Below are positions 2,517 to 11,611 of a DNA stretch of 32,000 bases, piece after piece. Source of the stretch: Candidatus Kuenenia stuttgartensis (GTDB taxonomy: Bacteria > Planctomycetota > Brocadiia > Brocadiales > Brocadiaceae). A program made the position numbers and the translations under genes. Below the pieces are notes generated by a model that was not told where the DNA came from, searched no databases, and saw only the letters and a program-made list of their open reading frames with translations. The stretch lies in the NCBI RefSeq assembly GCF_900232105.1, contig NZ_LT934425.1:2370001-2402000 (forward strand), in the 5' to 3' direction. How positions within the stretch are numbered: position 1 is the first letter of the stretch; each line of letters opens with the position of its first letter.

Positions 2517-2587
2517 TTTTGCTTATGAATTTTCACCTGACTGGCGTACCTTTTTAAAACCTACTATGGAACGGAGCACATGCAACA

Positions 2588-3583
2588 ATGAGGGTTTCAC
2601 TGGCTTTAAGCCTTTCTTTGACAAAATATTTGATTAAAAACAGGTTGTTATTTAAAAAAAGATTTCCTCTCGTATTAATGCTGGAAGTAACCCATCTCTG
2701 CAATCTTGCCTGCGAAGGATGTGGCCGTATTCTGGAATACCATGATACCATGCGTGAAATGTTAAGCGTTGGGGAGTGTATGCAGGCGATTCATGAGTGC
2801 CCGACCCCGGTGGTTACCATAACAGGGGGAGAGCCGCTTATGCATCCGGAAATAGACAAAATTATCTCCGGGATAATAAAGGAGAAACGGCACGTTTATT
2901 TATGCACTAACGGAATATTATTAGTCGATGCTTTAAAAAAACTGAAACCGCACAAATATCTCAATATTAATGTTCATATAGACGGGCTTGCGGAAACGCA
3001 TGACAAAATAGCAGGCAAAGGAATATTCGACCGGGCGACAAACGCCATCAGGGAAGCAAAAAAAGCAGGCTTTAAAGTCTGTACAAATACTACTATATTT
3101 AAAGATACCAGCGAAAAAGAAATTGTGGAATTATTTTCATTTTTGCAGGGACTTGGCGTTGACGGCATGCTGGTTTCTCCTGGTTATGGATTCGAACACA
3201 ATGAAAATGCAATTTTTCTTTGTCAAAAGGAAATAGAAGAACGATTTGGGTTTATTTATGGTATTTCAAAAAAATACAAAATATTAAATTCGCCCCTCTA
3301 TTTGAAATTTTTAAAAGGGGAAAGGACATTGAAATGTACGCCCTGGGGTAATCCTACCCGTAATTATTCAGGATGGAAAAGCCCCTGTTATCTTATCACG
3401 AACACACATTATAAAACCTTTGATGAGTATATGAAACAAACTGATTGGGAAAAATACCAGGAAGGACGAGACCCGCGCTGTGAAAATTGCATGATGCATT
3501 GTGGTTTCGAACCAACGGTCGTGCTGGAAGGGGGAAAACGCTTGTCAGACATTTATGAAATGGCAAAATGGGGGCTTAGTTAA
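2588..3583 (+). CDS. hpnH: Hopanoid-biosynthesis radical SAM protein HpnH (adenosylhopane synthase)
   Basis: 331-aa ORF. FPLVLMLEVTHLCNLACEGCGRILEY carries the CxxxCxxC radical-SAM cluster in the context typical of HpnH. There is a C-terminal Cys-rich tail (RCENCMMHCGFEP). The gene is convergent with shc. Confidence 0.85.
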   Translation: MRVSLALSLSLTKYLIKNRLLFKKRFPLVLMLEVTHLCNLACEGCGRILEYHDTMREMLSVGECMQAIHECPTPVVTITGGEPLMHPEIDKIISGIIKEKRHVYLCTNGILLVDALKKLKPHKYLNINVHIDGLAETHDKIAGKGIFDRATNAIREAKKAGFKVCTNTTIFKDTSEKEIVELFSFLQGLGVDGMLVSPGYGFEHNENAIFLCQKEIEERFGFIYGISKKYKILNSPLYLKFLKGERTLKCTPWGNPTRNYSGWKSPCYLITNTHYKTFDEYMKQTDWEKYQEGRDPRCENCMMHCGFEPTVVLEGGKRLSDIYEMAKWGLS

Positions 3584-3685
3584 GAAAATGGTAATAAAAA
3601 ATTTTGTTAACTGGCCGCAATCTGCAATTTGCCGAGAGCACAGTCTTCCCATTAGTAAAGGGATCAATGGGATGTTTACCTCAAG

Positions 3686-5767
3686 TTATTGAGAAGTTGC
3701 CAATTTATGAGTAAAGTGGCGATATCTTCCCAGCGCCATTAGTGGAAAATAGTTGCGATACATGTGGTATTTCAAATAAAAGACTTTGGGAAAACCTGTT
3801 GCCGTAAATTCTCTCTCATCCCAGCTACCGTCTTCTTTTTGAGTGGACAAAAGAAAATCTATTCCTCTCTCTGTGGAAGACGATTTTATTTCGCCGGCAG
3901 TAATCAGGGTCAGTAATGCCCAGGCTGTTTGAGAAGGAGTGCTTTTGCCTATTCCTTTTAATGCACTGTCCTCATACGATTTTATTGTTTCTCCCCAGCC
4001 GCCATCCGAGTTCTGTACACTCTTCAGCCAGGCAATTGCCTTTTTAATGTATGCCTTATTAATATCTTCACCAACCGCTATCAGCCCGGAAATCACAGAC
4101 CATGTACCATAAATATAATTTGAACCCCAACGCCCAAACCATGAACCGTCTTCATCCTGCTCTTTTTTCAGAAATTCAACAGCTTTTTTGATATTTAAAT
4201 ATGTCTTATTAAATCCGATACGGCCAAAAAATTCTATACATCTGCCTGTTACATCGCTGGTGCTTGGGTCAAGAAGCGCATTAAAATCGGCAAAGGGTAT
4301 ATTATTCAAAATCGTTTTATTATTGTTGCGGTCAAACGCCCCCCATCCTCCGTCATCGCATTGCATAGCCTGCAGCCATCGTAAGGCGCGTAAAAGAGTT
4401 TTTTCTTTATGCATGTCTTCTGGAAGAGAGACCCTCTGCAATGCCATGAGCACCGCGCCGGTATCATCAGTATCGGGATAAAATTCATTCGCATATTGAA
4501 AATACCACCCGCTCGGTTCCTCAACCTTACACTTTAATTTCCAATCACCAAAATCCCTGACTTCCTTGCTCAATAACCATTTACCTGCTTTTTGCAGAAC
4601 AGGGTGAGACCCTGGAATACCAGAATCATTCATTGCAATAATGGACCATGCAGTGTCCCATACCGGAGATACGCACGGTTGCAAATAAAGCATATCGCCT
4701 TCATAGATAACCAGCGCTTCCACCTCTTTCATCTGTGCGGTCAAAGCGGGGTGATCATCCGGATAATCAAGGCACTTCATGGCAAAAATCGAATTAATCA
4801 TTGCCGGCCAGATAGCCCCTAATCCGCCCGATTTTTCCATATGTTCAAGCAACCATTTTTCAGCCATCTTCTTCGCAATTCTCCGGATGAATTTAATGGG
4901 ATGCTGCTCATACCGGCGGAAGATACTATCCGCATCAATAAAAAAGTTGTACCAGCAAAACCCATCCTGATCCCTTTCTATACGATATACGACGTCTTCA
5001 CGCGGGACAAGATACAACTCCTTCAGCAAATCATCGCCTACGGTAACATGTGGTTTCCTGGCGATGGCAATAGAAAGGGGAACGACAATACATCTTGACC
5101 AGTAGGATATTTCATAAATACTAAAATAAAATCCTGCGGGGAACAAAATCATTTCTACCGGAACGGCAGGCACCGCCTGCCAATCAACCTGGCCAAACAT
5201 GGCAAGATAAATTTTGGTAAAGCAATTGGCGTTCATGATTCCACCCATGCCAAGGATGCATTCTTTCGCTTTTTTCATGAATGATTCATTTTCCGAATAT
5301 CCCGCTAATTTTAATGCAAAATATGCTTTTACCGATGCGCTGATCTCACTTGCTCCGCCATAATAAATATTCCAACCCCCGTCGGTCAGTTGCTGTTTCA
5401 GGAGAAATGCGACAGCCTTACCCTGTTTTTCATAATCTACCCTATTAAGAAAATGCATCAGCATAATGTATTCGGACGTCAATGTGGTATCTGCCTCCAA
5501 AATCCCTACCCAGTGACCATCCGTTATATTTTGCTGATTGATGAGATATCTCTGCGCCCTGTCTATCGAATCATCCAAAGGGTTCTCTGTTTTCTGCGTT
5601 GTAGATGCAGTTGTTCTGAAGTAAGTATTTTCCAAACTCAATTCATGCTTAATCAACTCTGGAATAGGATGTTTTCCATTGCCGTTTCCATTTCCATTTC
5701 CATTTCCATTAAATTTGTGTACAGTTGTCTCGAACCGTTCTAATAGATTTAATAGAAAATTTCTCAT
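3686..5767 (-). CDS. shc: Squalene-hopene cyclase
   Basis: 693-aa ORF with the DxDD catalytic motif (YPDTDDTGAVLMAL) and repeated QW motifs (QQLTDGGWNIY, QCDDGGWGAF, QDEDGSWFGRWG, QNSDGGWGE, QKEDGSWDE). GGAGG lies upstream of ATG 5767. The N-terminal extension is unusual and contains a GN repeat. Confidence 0.95.
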   Translation of the reverse strand: MRNFLLNLLERFETTVHKFNGNGNGNGNGNGKHPIPELIKHELSLENTYFRTTASTTQKTENPLDDSIDRAQRYLINQQNITDGHWVGILEADTTLTSEYIMLMHFLNRVDYEKQGKAVAFLLKQQLTDGGWNIYYGGASEISASVKAYFALKLAGYSENESFMKKAKECILGMGGIMNANCFTKIYLAMFGQVDWQAVPAVPVEMILFPAGFYFSIYEISYWSRCIVVPLSIAIARKPHVTVGDDLLKELYLVPREDVVYRIERDQDGFCWYNFFIDADSIFRRYEQHPIKFIRRIAKKMAEKWLLEHMEKSGGLGAIWPAMINSIFAMKCLDYPDDHPALTAQMKEVEALVIYEGDMLYLQPCVSPVWDTAWSIIAMNDSGIPGSHPVLQKAGKWLLSKEVRDFGDWKLKCKVEEPSGWYFQYANEFYPDTDDTGAVLMALQRVSLPEDMHKEKTLLRALRWLQAMQCDDGGWGAFDRNNNKTILNNIPFADFNALLDPSTSDVTGRCIEFFGRIGFNKTYLNIKKAVEFLKKEQDEDGSWFGRWGSNYIYGTWSVISGLIAVGEDINKAYIKKAIAWLKSVQNSDGGWGETIKSYEDSALKGIGKSTPSQTAWALLTLITAGEIKSSSTERGIDFLLSTQKEDGSWDEREFTATGFPKVFYLKYHMYRNYFPLMALGRYRHFTHKLATSQ
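5675..5710 (-). repeat. In-frame hexanucleotide tandem repeat encoding (Asn-Gly)6 inside shc
   Basis: The plus strand reads TCCATT GCCGTT TCCATT TCCATT TCCATT TCCATT. Four units are perfect and tandem and two are related. On the minus strand this translates as NGNGNGNGNGNG (aa 20-31 of SHC). Confidence 0.9.
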
Positions 5768-7509: not shown

Positions 7510-8058
7510 ATGGATACAACTGTCTTTAAAAAAGGCGAACCAATAGCACAAGAGGGCCATTTTACCTACTATGTGTACAGAATCCTGGAGGGAGAAGCAC
7601 AGTTACTAAAAAATATAAACGGCAGGGAAGTTCCTATATTGAAACTGGGAAAAGGAGCGGTTATCGGGAAACTCTCTTGTTTAGAGGAAAAAAGAAGGCT
7701 GGCGTCTACAATAGCCATTACCGATGTAAAGGCGGAGGTCATATCAAAAGAAGAGTTCATAAAAACACTTAATGAACTCCCCACGGAGATACATTCATCT
7801 ATGCGTGAACTCGCCTTTTTGCTTTCTGGTCTATCAAGTGTGGTAGGTCAGCTTATTTATTACCGTAACAGCATGGAGGGCAAGGATTTGAGCACATTGA
7901 GCCTGAAAAGTGTTTCGGGGCAACTTGATAAAGCGCCTGAAAGTATAAAGATGGTGTATAAGTCATTAATAGATGATATAATTAATAATTATGCCAAATG
8001 CGGGGAGACATTAAATGAAATACTTCGGAAGCTTGACGGCCTTAAAGAAGGTATTTAG
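7510..8058 (+). CDS. cNMP-binding-like domain protein with a C-terminal helical region
   Basis: 182-aa ORF. The N-terminal part, FKKGEPIAQEGHFTYYVYRILEGEAQLLKNINGREVPILKLGKGAVIGKLS...RRLASTIAITDVKAEVISKEEF, follows the CAP-type beta-barrel pattern, but the cNMP-contacting FGE/RSA positions are degenerate. Confidence 0.55.
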   Translation: MDTTVFKKGEPIAQEGHFTYYVYRILEGEAQLLKNINGREVPILKLGKGAVIGKLSCLEEKRRLASTIAITDVKAEVISKEEFIKTLNELPTEIHSSMRELAFLLSGLSSVVGQLIYYRNSMEGKDLSTLSLKSVSGQLDKAPESIKMVYKSLIDDIINNYAKCGETLNEILRKLDGLKEGI

Positions 8059-8247
8059 CTTTATTACATGTGGAACTAACGTTCCCGGTTACTAAGTCAA
8101 GGCATAGATTCTTAATATCAACACCATTCCTTTCTTTTTATAAAATTCACAAAAACTTCATGGTTTCATCCTGTTTTTGGCTTTGGTTTTCCAAATCCGG
8201 AAGCCCGTTTATCGATGAAAACAGGGACAGCGACTATTTATCATTAA

Positions 8248-8745
8248 CAAGTCTGGGTAAAATGGTTATGTGTTTATTTTATACCACGAATTGCAAGCAC
8301 TGTAGCCTCCGGATATCCACATCATGTAACTCAAAGAGGGAACTATCAACAGCCGGTTTTTGAAGATGAATCAGATTTCAGGCAATATCTTCAATGGCTA
8401 CAGGAATACAGTACAAAATACCCCTTAAAAATTTGGGCATATTGTCTTATGACTAATCATGTTCATTTTGTTTGTGTACCTGAGAAAGAGGATTTACTTG
8501 CACGCACATTTAATACACTGCATATGAGATACTCACAGTATTTCAATCAGAAAAGAAAATTGAAAGTACACCTCTGGCAGGGTAGATTTTACTCTTGTAT
8601 CCTTGATGAAAGACATTTGCGGGCAGTTATGTGAATAAGAGGCAAATCCTATTTTGTCTCAAGATTGTTATCTGGGAAAAGAGATAGACGATTGGTCATA
8701 ATATTTAAAGGAAAAAGAGGAAGAACAAGCCATAGAGAACCTAGC
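8248..8745 (+). pseudogene. RayT/IS200-type Y1 (HUH) transposase, copy 1, 5' portion (decayed)
   Basis: Frame reads ...YFIPRIASTVASGYPHHVTQRGNYQQPVFEDESDFRQYLQWLQEYSTKYPLKIWAYCLMTNHVHFVCVPEKEDLLARTFNTLHMRYSQYFNQKRKLKVHLWQGRFYSCILDERHLRAVM*. This is the COG1943/Y1_Tnp pattern and includes the HUH motif HVH. No start codon is in frame, because of a 2-nt indel relative to copy 2 at about 8271. The expected RYIERNPV segment (catalytic Tyr region) is missing. Homology resumes in another frame as PILSQDCYLGKEIDDWS*YLKEKEEEQAIENL. Confidence 0.75.
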
Positions 8746-8793
8746 GCGGCCTTTGGCCGCAACCAAAAAGGTGATTTTTAGTTTATTATAAAG

Positions 8794-10442
8794 TATAGTA
8801 GTATCCTCGTAAATAGTAATCAGACAATTTGGAGGACACTACTTATGAATAAGTTGATGGAATTATATCGAGACAGGATCGTGGGTGCAATAAGCGGTCT
8901 GGACAGGATTCGTTTTCGCGGGACATTGCGGTGGTTGGCCAGTGAGCGTGGGATGGGAACATTCATGAACCAAGCGAGAATTCTGCTTAAGGATTTTTCC
9001 GGTTGGGTCAATGGGCTTACGGCACAGGTGCGAGACAGTTGTGAATCGCGGGCGAAAGATTTGGGTATCGAGGTGCGGTATTTGATGAGCAGCGGTGTTG
9101 ATAAGGAGAAGTTGGCTCGCCAGATCGCGGCGGATAAGAGGATTACGGAAGGTTCCATCTGCCTGTTGAGTGTGGTAGAGCCTTGTATTGCGCCGATGGT
9201 CAAGGGCAACAAGGCCAGCAAGAAGCTCGAGTTGGTAATGGCGCCCCGCAAGTGTGTCTTTGTGTATCATTATTTTAATGATCCAGTGTTTGGTTTTGGT
9301 CATGTTCGTATCCAGAGTTGGGCGCCGTTTAATATTTTCATTTGTCTCAATGGTCGTCATTGGCTGGAGCGGCAACTTCAGAAGCAAGGTATTGATTATG
9401 TTAAGGACGGCAACTGTTTTGTGCGTATAGAGGATATTGCGGCTGCGCAGGTTCTGCTCCATGAGCAGCTTAAGACTGACTGGGCGAAGCTGCTGAACGG
9501 GCTTGCGTTGGGCAGTTGCCCGGCATTGTCGCAGATTCTTCGTCCGTTGGAACCGGAGTATTACTGGTCTGCGGATGAGACGGAGTGGGCGACGGACATC
9601 ATGTTTAAATCGGTTGAGGCATTGGAGGAGTTGTTTCCATCGTTTGTTCATCATGCGATGCGGGTTTGCGACAGTTCTTCGGTGATGAAGTATTTGGGTA
9701 GGCGTAACCTTGCAGGCGCTGCCCCTGATGAGGTTATCAGCGACTATCGAAGACGCTATGAAGGTATACGGGTCAAGCACAGTGTGAATTATAATTCAGT
9801 GAAGATGTATAACAAGAGCGGTAGTCTCTTGCGTATTGAGACAACGATCAATAATACGCGGGACTTTAAGGTCTTTCGGAGTCCCAATGATGATGAAGGC
9901 AAACCGGCGTCATGGCAGAAGATGCGTAAGGGCGTAAGCGATCTTCATCGACGGTGTGAGGTGAGCCAACAATGCAATGATCGTTATGGGGATGCTTTGG
10001 CGGCGGCTCAGGTAGAGGAGAAACTGAAAGAAGTGGTGAGCAGCGCTTGTAACAAGGTTGTCAAAGAGGGCAAGAGGTATCGAGGTTTGAATCCCTGGCA
10101 GCAGGATGATTACCAGATGCTGATGTTCCTGTCCAAAGGCGAAAACGCGATAAATGGATTCCGCAACCATGATTTGCGTAAGTGGCTTTACCGGGAATCC
10201 GAACAATCCGGCAAGGATCAGCAAAAGAAATATTCCGGACGAACGACCCGACGGATAAAGATGCTGCGGGCACACGGTCTAATCCGCAAAGTTCCGAGGG
10301 CCAACCGCTATGTTTTGACGGAGAAAGGCCAGAAGTTCTCTTGTTCACTGATGACCGCTTCAGCCCTTGATATTAAAGCACTTACGGAAATGGCGGCATG
10401 AAAAACACGCATAAAAAACAAGAAATTGATGGATAGTAGTAT
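8794..10442 (+). mobile_element. G+C-rich single-ORF insertion of about 1.65 kb (candidate IS of unassigned family) inside RayT pseudogene copy 1; ends uncertain by about 50 bp
   Basis: It separates the two halves of one transposase pseudogene. Hand counts give 35/60 and 36/60 G+C inside (8881-8940, 9481-9540) against 25/60 and 17/60 in flanking lines (8161-8220, 10741-10800). ATAGTAGTAT occurs at 8795-8804 and 10433-10442. TATAAAG occurs at 8787-8793 and 10440-10446. Confidence 0.55.
8845..10401 (+). CDS. Hypothetical 518-aa protein of the inserted element, with a C-terminal winged-helix-like region and a possible transposase role (family not recognised)
   Basis: Long ORF with GGAGG 9 nt upstream of the ATG. 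Codon usage is G/C-rich, unlike its neighbours. The C-terminus RTTRRIKMLRAHGLIRKVPRANRYVLTEKGQKF resembles a MarR-type wHTH. I see no DDE, HUH, or serine/tyrosine recombinase signature by eye. Confidence 0.8.
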   Translation: MNKLMELYRDRIVGAISGLDRIRFRGTLRWLASERGMGTFMNQARILLKDFSGWVNGLTAQVRDSCESRAKDLGIEVRYLMSSGVDKEKLARQIAADKRITEGSICLLSVVEPCIAPMVKGNKASKKLELVMAPRKCVFVYHYFNDPVFGFGHVRIQSWAPFNIFICLNGRHWLERQLQKQGIDYVKDGNCFVRIEDIAAAQVLLHEQLKTDWAKLLNGLALGSCPALSQILRPLEPEYYWSADETEWATDIMFKSVEALEELFPSFVHHAMRVCDSSSVMKYLGRRNLAGAAPDEVISDYRRRYEGIRVKHSVNYNSVKMYNKSGSLLRIETTINNTRDFKVFRSPNDDEGKPASWQKMRKGVSDLHRRCEVSQQCNDRYGDALAAAQVEEKLKEVVSSACNKVVKEGKRYRGLNPWQQDDYQMLMFLSKGENAINGFRNHDLRKWLYRESEQSGKDQQKKYSGRTTRRIKMLRAHGLIRKVPRANRYVLTEKGQKFSCSLMTASALDIKALTEMAA

Positions 10443-10455
10443 AAAGAGATGTTAA

Positions 10456-10570
10456 ATGACAGGAAGACCGTATGGTAATGATGGCTTTATGAAAAAACTT
10501 GAAACATTATTTGGAAGAAGGTTAAGGAATCTTCCGTGGGGAAGATCAGGCAAAACCAATAAATATTCGA
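10456..10570 (+). pseudogene. RayT/IS200-type transposase, copy 1, 3' remnant
   Basis: MTGRPYGNDGFMKKLETLFGRRLRNLPWGRSGKTNK matches the conserved C-terminal tail of the same family (tGRPlG..F..klE...gr.l....GRP.K). The rest of track ORF 10456..10653 is read-through. Confidence 0.6.
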
Positions 10571-10609
10571 TGTTCCTGTTTCCTGTGGTAGTTAGGCGGA
10601 ATAATATAA

Positions 10610-10786
10610 ATGAAATACACACAATACTTTCTCTACACACGCCAAAGACCTGACAGGGCATATATAAAAGATGAATGGATTGGTTTCACTATCAAGAATC
10701 CTGTTCAAACTCAAATACAATCCGATGGGCGAATAAGAAAATGGGCAAAAATTAAAGGTGTAAGTTATGAAAATAAAATATTTTAA
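10610..10786 (+). CDS. Small 58-aa ORF, possibly a truncated partner of the DUF2283 gene
   Basis: Below the track's size cut-off. ATG 10610 gives MKYTQYFLYTRQRPDRAYIKDEWIGFTIKNPVQTQIQSDGRIRKWAKIKGVSYENKIF*. The segment I..eWi...i.nP....iQ.DGRirkWa resembles the N-terminal half of small proteins often found next to DUF2283 genes. It overlaps the next gene by 20 nt. Confidence 0.3.
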   Translation: MKYTQYFLYTRQRPDRAYIKDEWIGFTIKNPVQTQIQSDGRIRKWAKIKGVSYENKIF

Positions 10787-10976
10787 TGATACGGACACGG
10801 CTCTGCTGGAATTTACAGAAAAGCAGGTAAAAGAAACACGAGAGATATCAGAGAATATATATATCGACATTGATGAAAATGGCAATCTTGTTAGCATGAC
10901 AATTGAACATGCGAAAACAACAGCGCATCTGCCAGACATATCCTACCAACAAATAGAGAAAAAAGTTGTCGCATAA
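10767..10976 (+). CDS. DUF2283-family small protein
   Basis: 69-aa ORF. MKIKYFNDTDTALLEFTEKQVKETREISENIYIDIDENGNLVSMTIEHAK follows the DUF2283 pattern (YD.e.D.l.i.......s.e....i.D.de.G.lvgieI..A). Confidence 0.65.
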   Translation: MKIKYFNDTDTALLEFTEKQVKETREISENIYIDIDENGNLVSMTIEHAKTTAHLPDISYQQIEKKVVA

Positions 10977-11039
10977 AAAGAAGGGAAAATAGGGACAGCG
11001 GCTATTTATCATTACCAAGTCAAGGCAAAATGGTTATAT

Positions 11040-11315
11040 GTGTATTTTATACCACGAATTGCAAGAACGGTAGCCTCCGGTTATCCACATCATGTAACTC
11101 AAAGAGGAAACTATCAACAGCCAGTTTTTGAAGATGAATCAGATTTCATCCGATATCTTCAATGGCTACAGGAATACAGTACAAAATACCCCTTAAAAAT
11201 CTGGGCATATTGTCTTATGACTAAGCATGTTTGTGTCCCTGAGAAAGAGGATTCATTTGCACGCACATTTAATACGCTTCATATGAGGTACTCACAGTAT
11301 TTCAATCAAATATAA
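11040..11315 (+). pseudogene. RayT/IS200-type Y1 transposase, copy 2, truncated 5' fragment lacking the HUH motif
   Basis: 10991-11308 is a near-identical duplicate of 8223-8549. It keeps the GTG start (MYFIPRIARTVASGYPHHVTQRGN...). A 9-bp deletion (CATTTTGTT) turns MTNHVHFVCVPEKE into MTKHVCVPEKE. Homology stops after YFNQ at 11308. Confidence 0.8.
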
Positions 11316-11319
11316 ATAT

Positions 11320-11376
11320 AGGGACACATCCCATATTTTTCCACAAGATTAAGCAAGAAATATGGGATGTGTTCCT
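11320..11376. repeat. Near-perfect 18-19 bp inverted repeat (hairpin) at the junction of two truncated transposase fragments
   Basis: GGGACACATCCCATATTT (11321-11338) pairs with AAATATGGGATGTGTTCC (11358-11375), with one G:T position. The loop is 19 nt. An extra A:T pair at 11320/11376 extends the stem. Confidence 0.8.
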
Positions 11377-11383
11377 GATTCTC

Positions 11384-11611
11384 CATAATCCATGTATCCA
11401 TGGAAACATTTTTACGCATCTGCGGTGTTTTTTGCCATTTGCCCGCTACCATTTCCCCGGCGGCTGACAACCGCACCTTTTCATCAATCACATCACCAAA
11501 TGTAGTTTCCAGTGCCATTACATTACCAAACAAGAGTTTGGGAATCGGCGGAGAGAATTTGTTTAGCGGCAATTCGTGAATTCCCTCTGCATAGCAGCAG
11601 CACAAAGACAT
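11384..11611 (-). pseudogene. Fragment of a second type of Y1/IS200-like transposase (N-terminal part only)
   Basis: The minus-strand ORF reads ...FGDVIDEKVRLSAAGEMVAGKWQKTPQMRKNVSMDTWIM. This matches the pattern FG.i.dg.m.Ln..G.iv...W..l......v.lDe.viMPNHiH of COG1943-type proteins. The sequence breaks off where the MPNHxH (HUH) motif should be and runs into the 11320-11376 hairpin. Confidence 0.45.

Follow-up and report, generated by a model that had tools for sequence, protein, structure and literature searches.

Within a stretch of 32,000 nucleotides of the Candidatus Kuenenia stuttgartensis genome (contig NZ_LT934425.1, positions 2,370,001 to 2,402,000 of the forward strand; hereafter the window, in whose numbering positions are given), the segment from 8741 to 10440 is very probably an insertion sequence that is autonomous, was active recently and belongs to a family unclassified in the databases compared (Pfam, NCBIfam, PHROGs, PADLOC and PDB). 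The element lies on the forward strand, is exactly 1,700 bp long, and has neither terminal inverted repeats nor a target duplication. Its insertion is scarless, oriented and sequence-specific, its ends are asymmetric with one hairpin, and it encodes a single conserved protein of 518 amino acids. Taking the whole statement together, including the chemistry suggested by a structural model, we lean towards a mobile, unclassified insertion sequence with a tyrosine transposase of the Rep_trans/Rep-Arvir type.

Boundaries of the element and the interrupted gene

The limits were defined by an empty site and by further copies. The closest intact homologue of the interrupted RayT gene (P0271 at locus L137, 90% identical) reads GCCATAGAGAAC|ATAAAGAGATGTTCAATGACAGG across the site, also given as GCCATAGAGAAC|ATAAAGAGATG, and the empty site itself is GAGAAC|ATAAAGAG. 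In the window, ...GAGAAC (ending at 8740) is followed by the insert, CTAGCGCGGCC...GGATAGTAGT (ending at 10440), and then by ATAAAGAGATG.... Based on this comparison, the insert comprises 8741 to 10440 and lacks a target duplication. Similarity among copies also ends exactly at these two bases. An initial sequence-only reading of the window had set the limits at 8746 and 10446, which is 5-6 nt off.

The same reading had taken the flanking RayT fragments for the halves of one gene, and both the empty site and a continuous alignment with homologues agree. Joined, the two halves can be aligned over their whole length with intact homologues of 222 aa (...EEEQAIEN-IKRCSMTGRP...), and a search with the joined pseudo-protein returned thousands of intact homologues of ~221 aa, as well as a fragment at 99% identity whose name is "transposase [Candidatus Kuenenia sp.]". 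The 5' part (8281-8740, forward strand), located by homologue alignment and Pfam, matches Y1_Tnp (PF01797, E 1.4e-11) in its N-terminal region. The 3' part (IKRC*MTGRPYGNDGFMKKLETLFGRRLRNLPWGRSGKTNK; 10441-10564, forward strand) was located by homologue alignment and by the L137 locus. The pseudogene starts with ATA, is broken by two in-frame stops and by a frameshift, and lacks ~29 aa that are present internally in P0271. Judging from these lesions, the interrupted gene would be dead even without the insertion, or has decayed since.

The sole gene of the element, for the 518-aa putative transposase, is at 8845-10401 on the forward strand and was assigned from the list of open reading frames (ORFs), its conservation and an AlphaFold2 model. 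It occupies 1,557 of the 1,700 bp and has a GGAGGA Shine-Dalgarno sequence at 8832-8837. The G+C content of the element is 48.5%, versus 41.0% in the rest of the window (0.45-0.56 inside versus 0.34-0.40 in the flanks, in sliding windows), and antisense ORFs of 305, 143, 121 and 95 aa are present. Thus the sequence-only reading was right about the ORF and its good Shine-Dalgarno sequence, the contrast in composition and the long antisense frames, as it was about the absence of terminal inverted repeats. A scan for promoters and terminators gave nothing above chance, and no known RNA was found by Rfam over positions 8000-11500. The top strand of the element has a strong G-over-C skew (+0.24); that of the rest of the window is near 0.

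Copies and distribution

We identified at least 10 further copies, each of 1,700 bp, in Ca. Kuenenia stuttgartiensis CSTR1 (complete genome, CP049055.1). They differ from the window copy by 1-2 mismatches (at least 99.9% identity) and all occupy different, unrelated sites. Three full copies (L001, L002 and L009) and one partial copy occur in a Brocadiaceae metagenome-assembled genome (MAG), with fragments in other anammox MAGs, and the exact protein of the window is encoded on 153 contigs. Copies that can still be aligned at the nucleotide level (70-78% identity) are found in genomes of Pirellulales, Desulfobacterales and Chitinophagaceae. Overall, relatives of the element are spread over many phyla of bacteria. 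Subfamilies at 38-45% protein identity are themselves multi-copy within single genomes (99.5-99.9% identity) and have the same end motifs. The core of the sequence-only reading, an insertion sequence with an uncharacterised transposase family, is therefore upheld, as the element is multi-copy with identical ends and its protein matches no characterised family; the copy count it had proposed as a check comes to at least 11 in Ca. Kuenenia, several in the Brocadiaceae MAG and hundreds in metagenomes.

The protein family comprises 5,502 clusters at 50% identity (E<=1e-3), whose members are named "hypothetical protein", apart from one plasmid homologue named "ArsR family transcriptional regulator". 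The latter is a 504-aa, 29%-identical protein of a cultured bacterium (L155; Paraburkholderia phytofirmans pOLGA1, 252808-254322), which could serve as a tractable experimental system. Homologues are overwhelmingly on metagenome contigs of 1.7-2.5 kb, a bias that we attribute to a repeat that breaks assemblies. Viral contigs, phage records and small plasmids yielded none; those matches that are on plasmids lie on replicons of 0.2-1.3 Mb. The identical Kuenenia protein is also deposited as "Staphylococcus aureus GC240_14050" and in an ECOLX-tagged UniRef entry; these are most likely contaminated assemblies.

Two loci suggest that the element can be mobilised in trans and that the junction of a right end with its flank is itself a usable target. 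One carries a derivative of ~160 nt consisting only of the two ends (left hairpin and AACCAAA ... TTAGTAGT; L028, 4589-4748), which abuts the right end of a full copy with a spacer of 0 nt, and the other has two full copies 11 nt apart (L024). Several other variants were seen. A subfamily of 2,057 bp (L021 and L035, the latter at 2546-4602) has ~310 extra nt between the left-end hairpin and the ORF, and a solitary, degenerate left end occurs at L086. The right terminus is briefly duplicated at L008 near 4343 (...TAGTAGTA TAGTAGTA CAAAG) and at L060 near 3097 (...TAGTAGTG TAGTA CGGAT), which may reflect slippage or aberrant end-joining.

Ends of the element

The left end begins with the trinucleotide CTA (8741-8743, forward strand), as defined by tables of 42 + 10 insertion junctions. 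This position (NYR) is lineage-specific, being CTA, CTG, TTG, CCA or ACA, and is shared by near-identical copies. It is followed by the signature GCGCGGCC-TTT-GGCCGC-AACCAAA (8744-8767, forward strand), in which 8746-8751 (GCGGCC) are predicted to pair with 8755-8760 (GGCCGC) in a DNA hairpin. The signature was compared across 65 left ends of relatives, where it takes the form GCGCGGC(C)-loop-(G)GCCGC-AACCAAA with a stem of 5-6 bp that is kept and a loop that differs in sequence and in length (3-5 nt). It reaches relatives at 38-45% protein identity, and is unique in the window, with 0 occurrences expected by chance. In front of the 29%-identical homologue from Paraburkholderia, AACCAAA recurs, there after a hairpin of 4 bp that differs from the one above. 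The hairpin and AACCAAA are probably the recognition site of the transposase.

Between this signature and the gene, RNA folding predicts a stem-loop (8797-8843, forward strand) in which UAGUAGUAUCCUC pairs with GGAGGACACUACU and which contains an internal ATAGTAGTAT. In the predicted fold the Shine-Dalgarno sequence next to the start codon is buried (-16.5 kcal/mol, z -3.6; 0 of 200 shuffles as good). Four other subfamilies have a stem-loop that buries the ribosome-binding site and start codon in the same architecture, with different sequences (z -3.4 to -6.2). In IS200 and other insertion sequences, a stem-loop hiding the ribosome-binding site guards against read-through expression.

The right end (10402-10440, forward strand) is A-rich and ends in GGATAGTAGT (...TAGTAGT). 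Its terminus, (A/T)(A/T)GTA(G/T)T, is conserved across 67 right ends and in distant subfamilies. No stable hairpin was found at the right end, where the fold is no better than in shuffled sequences.

Target site

The target was derived from 52 junctions, comprising 42 independent ones and those of 10 Kuenenia copies. The consensus is C^A(C/T)RRA, and insertion is strand-specific, in one orientation relative to the repeat units. Among the 42 junctions, position -1 is C in all 42, +1 is A in 98%, +2 is C in 90% or otherwise T, +3 is a purine and +5 is A in 95%; the bases 3' of the cut are thus A, C (or T), a purine, G/A and A. The left flank repeats the target unit one period upstream (e.g., AACC-ACAGATTAC^ACAGATTGC-ACAGATTAA), from which we infer that insertion occurs at the boundary of tandem units of ~10 nt.

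In the window, the two halves of the target are the unit ATAGAGAAC (8732-8740, forward strand) and the unit ATAAAGAGA (10441-10449, forward strand). Both are RayT coding sequence, continuous at L137, and the site ATAGAGAAC^ATAAAGAGA is a chance approximation of the target within that coding sequence. Identical Kuenenia copies use ACGGA, ACAGA, ACAAA, ATAAA and ATATA. Since the same element accepts five different targets, recognition is degenerate and probably by protein. The junction tables revealed no guide-like complementarity of the element ends to the target, and no covariation of the 5' trinucleotide or of the right-end variants with the flanks.

A target duplication of 7-10 bp, considered by the sequence-only reading, is ruled out by the empty site and the 52 junctions. 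The repeats on which it was based, ATAGTAGTAT (8795-8804 and 10433-10442) and TATAAAG (8787-8793 and 10440-10446), do occur at those positions. The left pair is ~50 nt inside the element, in the 5' arm of the stem-loop that buries the ribosome-binding site. On the right, ATAGTAGT is the conserved 3' terminus of the element, and the adjoining ATAAAG is pre-existing RayT coding sequence. The likeness of the flanking units stems from a tandem repeat that was there before insertion: even next to copies that are 99.9% identical the two units do not match perfectly, and the uninterrupted RayT gene has both.

Elsewhere, targets are arrays of 2-3 tandem units of ~9-11 nt (flanks of L145-L154, L058-L067, L109, L111, L124 and others), for example TTAGCC-ACAGATTTC-ACAGATTTC-ACAGAAAA and AACC-ACGAAGGAC-ACGAAGAA. 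Arrays of this type recur in intergenic DNA of several phyla, often immediately upstream of or next to PDDEXK_3 genes (PF13366, "GxxExxY"); in the window there is only the weak site at 8732-8749.

The encoded protein and its predicted fold

Sequence searches of Pfam, NCBIfam, PHROGs, PADLOC and PDB gave nothing beyond a weak C-terminal winged helix. This winged helix-turn-helix spans approximately residues 455-507 (10207-10365, forward strand) and matches HTH_45 (E 0.0056); a profile search matched MarR 3bj6 over residues 462-510 (E 0.041), and the HVO_A0261_N winged helix-turn-helix matches 37 of 86 family members (best E 2.8e-5). The MarR-like winged helix seen by the sequence-only reading is thus present, if weak. 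Identity as an ArsR/MarR regulator was rejected, as the winged helix-turn-helix matches are sub-threshold and confined to ~455-507 of 518 residues, and that family consists of small (~100-150 aa) dimeric winged helix-turn-helix proteins. No RNase-H-like, DEDD, serine recombinase or tyrosine recombinase fold or domain was identified (Pfam and NCBIfam; Foldseek matches). The sequence-only reading had likewise recognised no recombinase motif, which agrees with the lack of DDE/DEDD and serine or tyrosine recombinase domains or folds and of a PF01797 match. Its guess of an ISNCY-type element was not borne out, as neither an NCBIfam ISNCY model nor a transposase model of any insertion sequence family matched.

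Conservation was evaluated in 86 members at 30-69% identity. Invariant residues are Y143, G150, P161, N169, L174, E247, Y322, R330 and E332; near-invariant residues include D20, R21, E112, Y141, R155, D251, K320 and K324. The putative catalytic core (residues 1-362; 8845-9930, forward strand), delimited from a core model, conserved columns and Foldseek, carries D20, R21, E112, Y141, Y143, R155, E247, D251, G307, K320, Y322, K324, R330 and E332.

AlphaFold2 models were obtained for the full-length protein (pLDDT 93.3, pTM 0.83) and for the core (pLDDT 94.7, pTM 0.91). By DSSP, the core model consists of two consecutive S1-H1-S2-S3-S4-S5-H2 modules, a topology that corresponds to a TBP-like saddle. 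Foldseek searches of PDB with the full-length and core models returned nothing at E<1e-3. The only recurring fold among the matches is that of TBP (1tbp, probability 0.63; among viral models, TBPs of giant viruses, E 5e-4, probability 0.98). The best match in BFVD is an unnamed viral protein of 483 aa (A0A6M6DIF8; full-length alignment, E 6e-5, probability 0.98), which may be a viral relative of the element's protein family or of Rep-Arvir.

A possible Rep_trans-like active site

Matches to the TBP fold are informative because published work reports the same resemblance for Rep_trans and for RepSNJ2. TBP is the sole structural neighbour reported for the Rep_trans catalytic domain, whose catalytic motifs are on strands 1, 6, 9, 10 and 11 of a TBP-like sheet (PMC4797284). 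RepSNJ2, an archaeal Rep-Arvir initiator validated by mutagenesis, gave marginal matches in PDB and then TBP-fold matches in a viral library, and Rep-Arvir proteins combine a catalytic domain with a MarR-like winged helix-turn-helix (PMC13107129). The Rep_trans motifs are N' (D), I (RxD), II (xYxG), III (YxK) and IV (xRxE) (PMC5714925).

In the predicted model of the element's protein, the residues of these motifs map in order onto the corresponding strands. D20 on strand S1 corresponds to motif N' (RepC D46), and E247-x-A-T-D251 on S1' to motif I (RxD; RepC RLD142LAFD146). Y305-E-G307-I-R309 on S3' corresponds to motif II (RepC YFGVR), K-M-Y322-N-K324 on S4' to motif III (RepC RIY191NK193), and L-R330-I-E332 on S5' to motif IV (RepC WR212VE214). 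The proposed nucleophile is Y322 of the KMYNK motif (codon at 9808-9810, forward strand), which is invariant in the 86 members, is on a beta strand in the model and is aligned by hhalign with RepC Y191. Using a small Rep_trans alignment built from plasmid records, hhalign over the full length pairs D20, E247, Y322 and E332 with D46, D142, Y191 and E214, and likewise D251, G307, K324 and R330 with D146, the motif II glycine, K193 and R212 (P 0.074; 3 of 100 shuffles as good). Restricted to the second module, a region picked after the first alignment, it gives P 0.003 (4 of 200 shuffles). Against a single RepC sequence, hhalign found no match. A Rep_trans-like active site is the best-supported reading of the model and is somewhat favoured by us, short of being established.

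Proposed mechanism

We propose that the 518-aa protein acts as the transposase and that its N-terminal TBP-like saddle would be a metal-dependent tyrosine endonuclease of the Rep_trans/Rep-Arvir type. The metal would be held by D20, E247 (with D251) and E332, and Y322 would nick one strand at the junction of flank and left end (C^CTAG) and at that of right end and flank (AGT^A(C/T)RRA), each nick leaving a 5'-phosphotyrosine link. Exchange of the 3'-OH ends would reseal the donor and free a circular single strand whose ends meet as ...TAGTAGT|CTAGCGCGG...; in another version, the nick would serve as the primer for rolling-circle copying. Integration at C^A(C/T)RRA would be the same reaction run backwards. 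IS200/IS605 ("peel and paste") and IS91 proceed in such ways with HUH enzymes, and it is this analogy that suggests a single-stranded intermediate. The winged helix probably docks on the region of the left-end hairpin and AACCAAA, and the invariant Y143 of the first module may be a second nucleophile or a DNA-stacking residue.

Several observations weigh against a Rep_trans-type tyrosine transposase. The hhalign statistics are marginal, and the better value is for a region chosen post hoc. Neither the window protein nor the 86 members match PF02486, PF05144 or DUF7845, even at E<=10, and Foldseek did not return the Rep_trans crystal structures. The second invariant tyrosine, Y143, is without a Rep_trans counterpart, and the element, unlike IS200/IS605, has a hairpin only at its left end. 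As to strand bias, among the matches listed for CP049055.1, 7 of 9 copies have one orientation within one replichore, which is not significant, and the GC skew of the flanks is positive in 12 cases and negative in 8.

Alternative explanations

The element could instead be an insertion sequence whose ORF is a transposase of different chemistry. One such enzyme would be a metal-dependent, hydrolytic nuclease or strand transferase with a new fold, acting site-specifically on double-stranded DNA like IS110. The empty site and the copies fit this equally well, neither sequence nor structure matches Rep_trans significantly, and IS110/IS1111 elements also insert site-specifically without a duplication or inverted repeats. 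In addition, a site that relies on metal alone could be built from the conserved acidic residues D20, E112, E247, D251 and E332. We nevertheless regard such chemistry as unlikely, because neighbouring strands of a TBP-like sheet carry the invariant tyrosine as part of YxK...RxE, an arrangement shared with Rep_trans, and because no RNase-H-like, DEDD, serine-recombinase or tyrosine-recombinase fold or domain was found.

A variant of the Rep_trans model, from which it differs solely in the replication of the circle, is an integrated rolling-circle mini-replicon (plasmid- or satellite-like). Here the Rep would replicate the excised circle from an origin at the left-end hairpin and also re-integrate it. 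In function, the inferred fold has its nearest relatives among initiators that nick at origins formed by hairpins, and a single Rep-like gene with a conserved hairpin at one end would suit such a replicon. However, all copies observed are integrated in chromosomes and have precise ends, searches of viral contigs, phage records and small plasmids gave no homologue, and 1.7 kb leaves no space for other functions. We consider a mini-replicon improbable.

It is slightly more doubtful still that the ORF is a DNA-binding passenger or regulator, as the PGAP label "ArsR family transcriptional regulator" would have it, and that mobilisation of the element falls to an enzyme of the host acting in trans, such as the tyrosine transposase RayT/TnpA-REP working on a REP-like left hairpin. 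The winged helix is indeed the sole database-recognisable part of the protein, the genome has RayT genes, and the hairpin of the left end is short and rich in G+C. Yet the ends co-vary with the ORF across phyla, down to 29-45% identity, and RayT beside other copies amounts to 1 weak match in 137 loci. Conservation is strong over the ~360 residues beyond the winged helix, where Tyr, Glu and Arg are invariant, and the ORF is the sole cargo ever seen. Its translation is also predicted to be throttled by the stem-loop burying the ribosome-binding site, like that of other transposase genes.

Finally, a single, non-mobile, horizontally acquired G+C-rich gene that interrupts the pseudogene by chance would account for a composition that differs from the flanks, but it is refuted by the empty site, by at least 11 near-identical copies with identical ends at different loci and by thousands of relatives whose limits carry the same end motifs.

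Neighbouring genes

A second truncated RayT (Y1_Tnp) pseudogene fragment is located at 10985-11319, 2.77 kb downstream of the first and in the same orientation, and is 93% and 88% identical to 8217-8560. Between the RayT fragments, at 10610-10976, are two small overlapping ORFs, one of 58 aa without a Pfam match and one encoding a 69-aa DUF2283 protein (E 3.4e-18). Their layout looks like that of a toxin-antitoxin pair.

Implications

In our judgement the chances are evenly balanced that this element is the founding example of a new transposase class, in which a TBP-fold, Rep_trans-related tyrosine endonuclease was recruited from rolling-circle initiators. If so, it would mirror the way in which IS200/IS605, IS91 and Helitrons arose from HUH Reps, and, provided the Rep_trans link is true, the second great family of rolling-circle initiators would extend the route from replicon to transposon to a new fold. 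It would also reveal a very large, overlooked family of scarless insertion sequences, specific for sequence and strand, in Planctomycetota, Desulfobacterota, Acidobacteriota, Bacteroidota and Pseudomonadota that home to tandem ACRGA-type repeat arrays. Thousands of proteins that are now labelled "hypothetical protein" or "ArsR regulator" would get a correct name, and the contigs of 1.7-2 kb that break metagenome assemblies would be accounted for. The elements would be an unrecognised contributor to the plasticity of anammox genomes; comparative genomics of Kuenenia counted only annotated transposases (PMC7709395). As a compact single protein with a 1.7-kb element that inserts scarlessly, in one orientation and at a defined short sequence, the system would be a candidate tool for DNA insertion.

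Comparison with known systems

Literature searches for a transposase of Rep_trans or TBP fold, or for a matching insertion sequence family, found nothing. In some respects the element resembles IS200/IS605, which also lack inverted repeats and target duplication and insert strand-specifically beside a short conserved sequence. Both have a subterminal hairpin as the apparent recognition element and form tandem head-to-tail insertions, and in IS200, as here, the ribosome-binding site of the transposase is hidden in a stem-loop. However, IS200/IS605 encode a Y1_Tnp of ~150 aa with an HUH/RRM fold, whereas the element's protein has 518 aa, a predicted TBP-like saddle with a winged helix, and no PF01797 match. 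IS200/IS605 have hairpins at both ends rather than at the left end only, and insert 3' of a fixed tetra- or pentanucleotide, whereas the target of the element spans the cut, its signal being strongest on the 3' side.

Like the element, IS91/ISCR and Helitrons (HUH Y2) lack a target duplication, have dissimilar ends and need a short specific sequence next to one end, and they use an initiator-derived nuclease, as the element may do. IS91 and Helitrons have two tyrosines; the two that are invariant in the element's protein, Y143 and Y322, lie on different strands. Their enzymes belong to another superfamily, and copies of the element are precise and of equal length, with no sign of one-ended read-through.

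IS110/IS1111 elements are also site-specific for short repeats, without duplication or terminal inverted repeats, but their DEDD and Transposase_20 domains are absent from the element's protein. With 104 and 39 nt, the non-coding ends of the element could not accommodate a bridge RNA, and they have no Rfam match. The use of degenerate targets by identical copies further argues for read-out by protein rather than by RNA.

The proteins that resemble the putative transposase most closely are those of Rep_trans (PF02486: pT181 RepC/RepD, CTXphi RstA, Tn916 Orf20 and ICEBs1 NicK) and of Rep-Arvir (DUF7845, RepSNJ2). Predicted to be shared are a two-module TBP-like saddle, an invariant beta-strand tyrosine within a YxK that precedes xRxE, a first strand with acidic residues in both modules, a C-terminal winged helix and a DNA substrate with a hairpin. 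The element's protein differs in that it has no HMM-level or significant profile similarity to these families, in its much larger helical insertions and in its loop between motifs III and IV (5 residues versus ~18). The context differs also, since Rep_trans and Rep-Arvir proteins belong to plasmids, phages or conjugative elements rather than to an insertion sequence; no transposase is known in either family. The known transposases of prokaryotes belong to the catalytic classes DDE/DEDD, HUH, serine, tyrosine-recombinase and Cas1. In its behaviour the element is a variant of the hairpin-ended, duplication-free insertion sequences, and its enzyme lies outside all known transposase classes.

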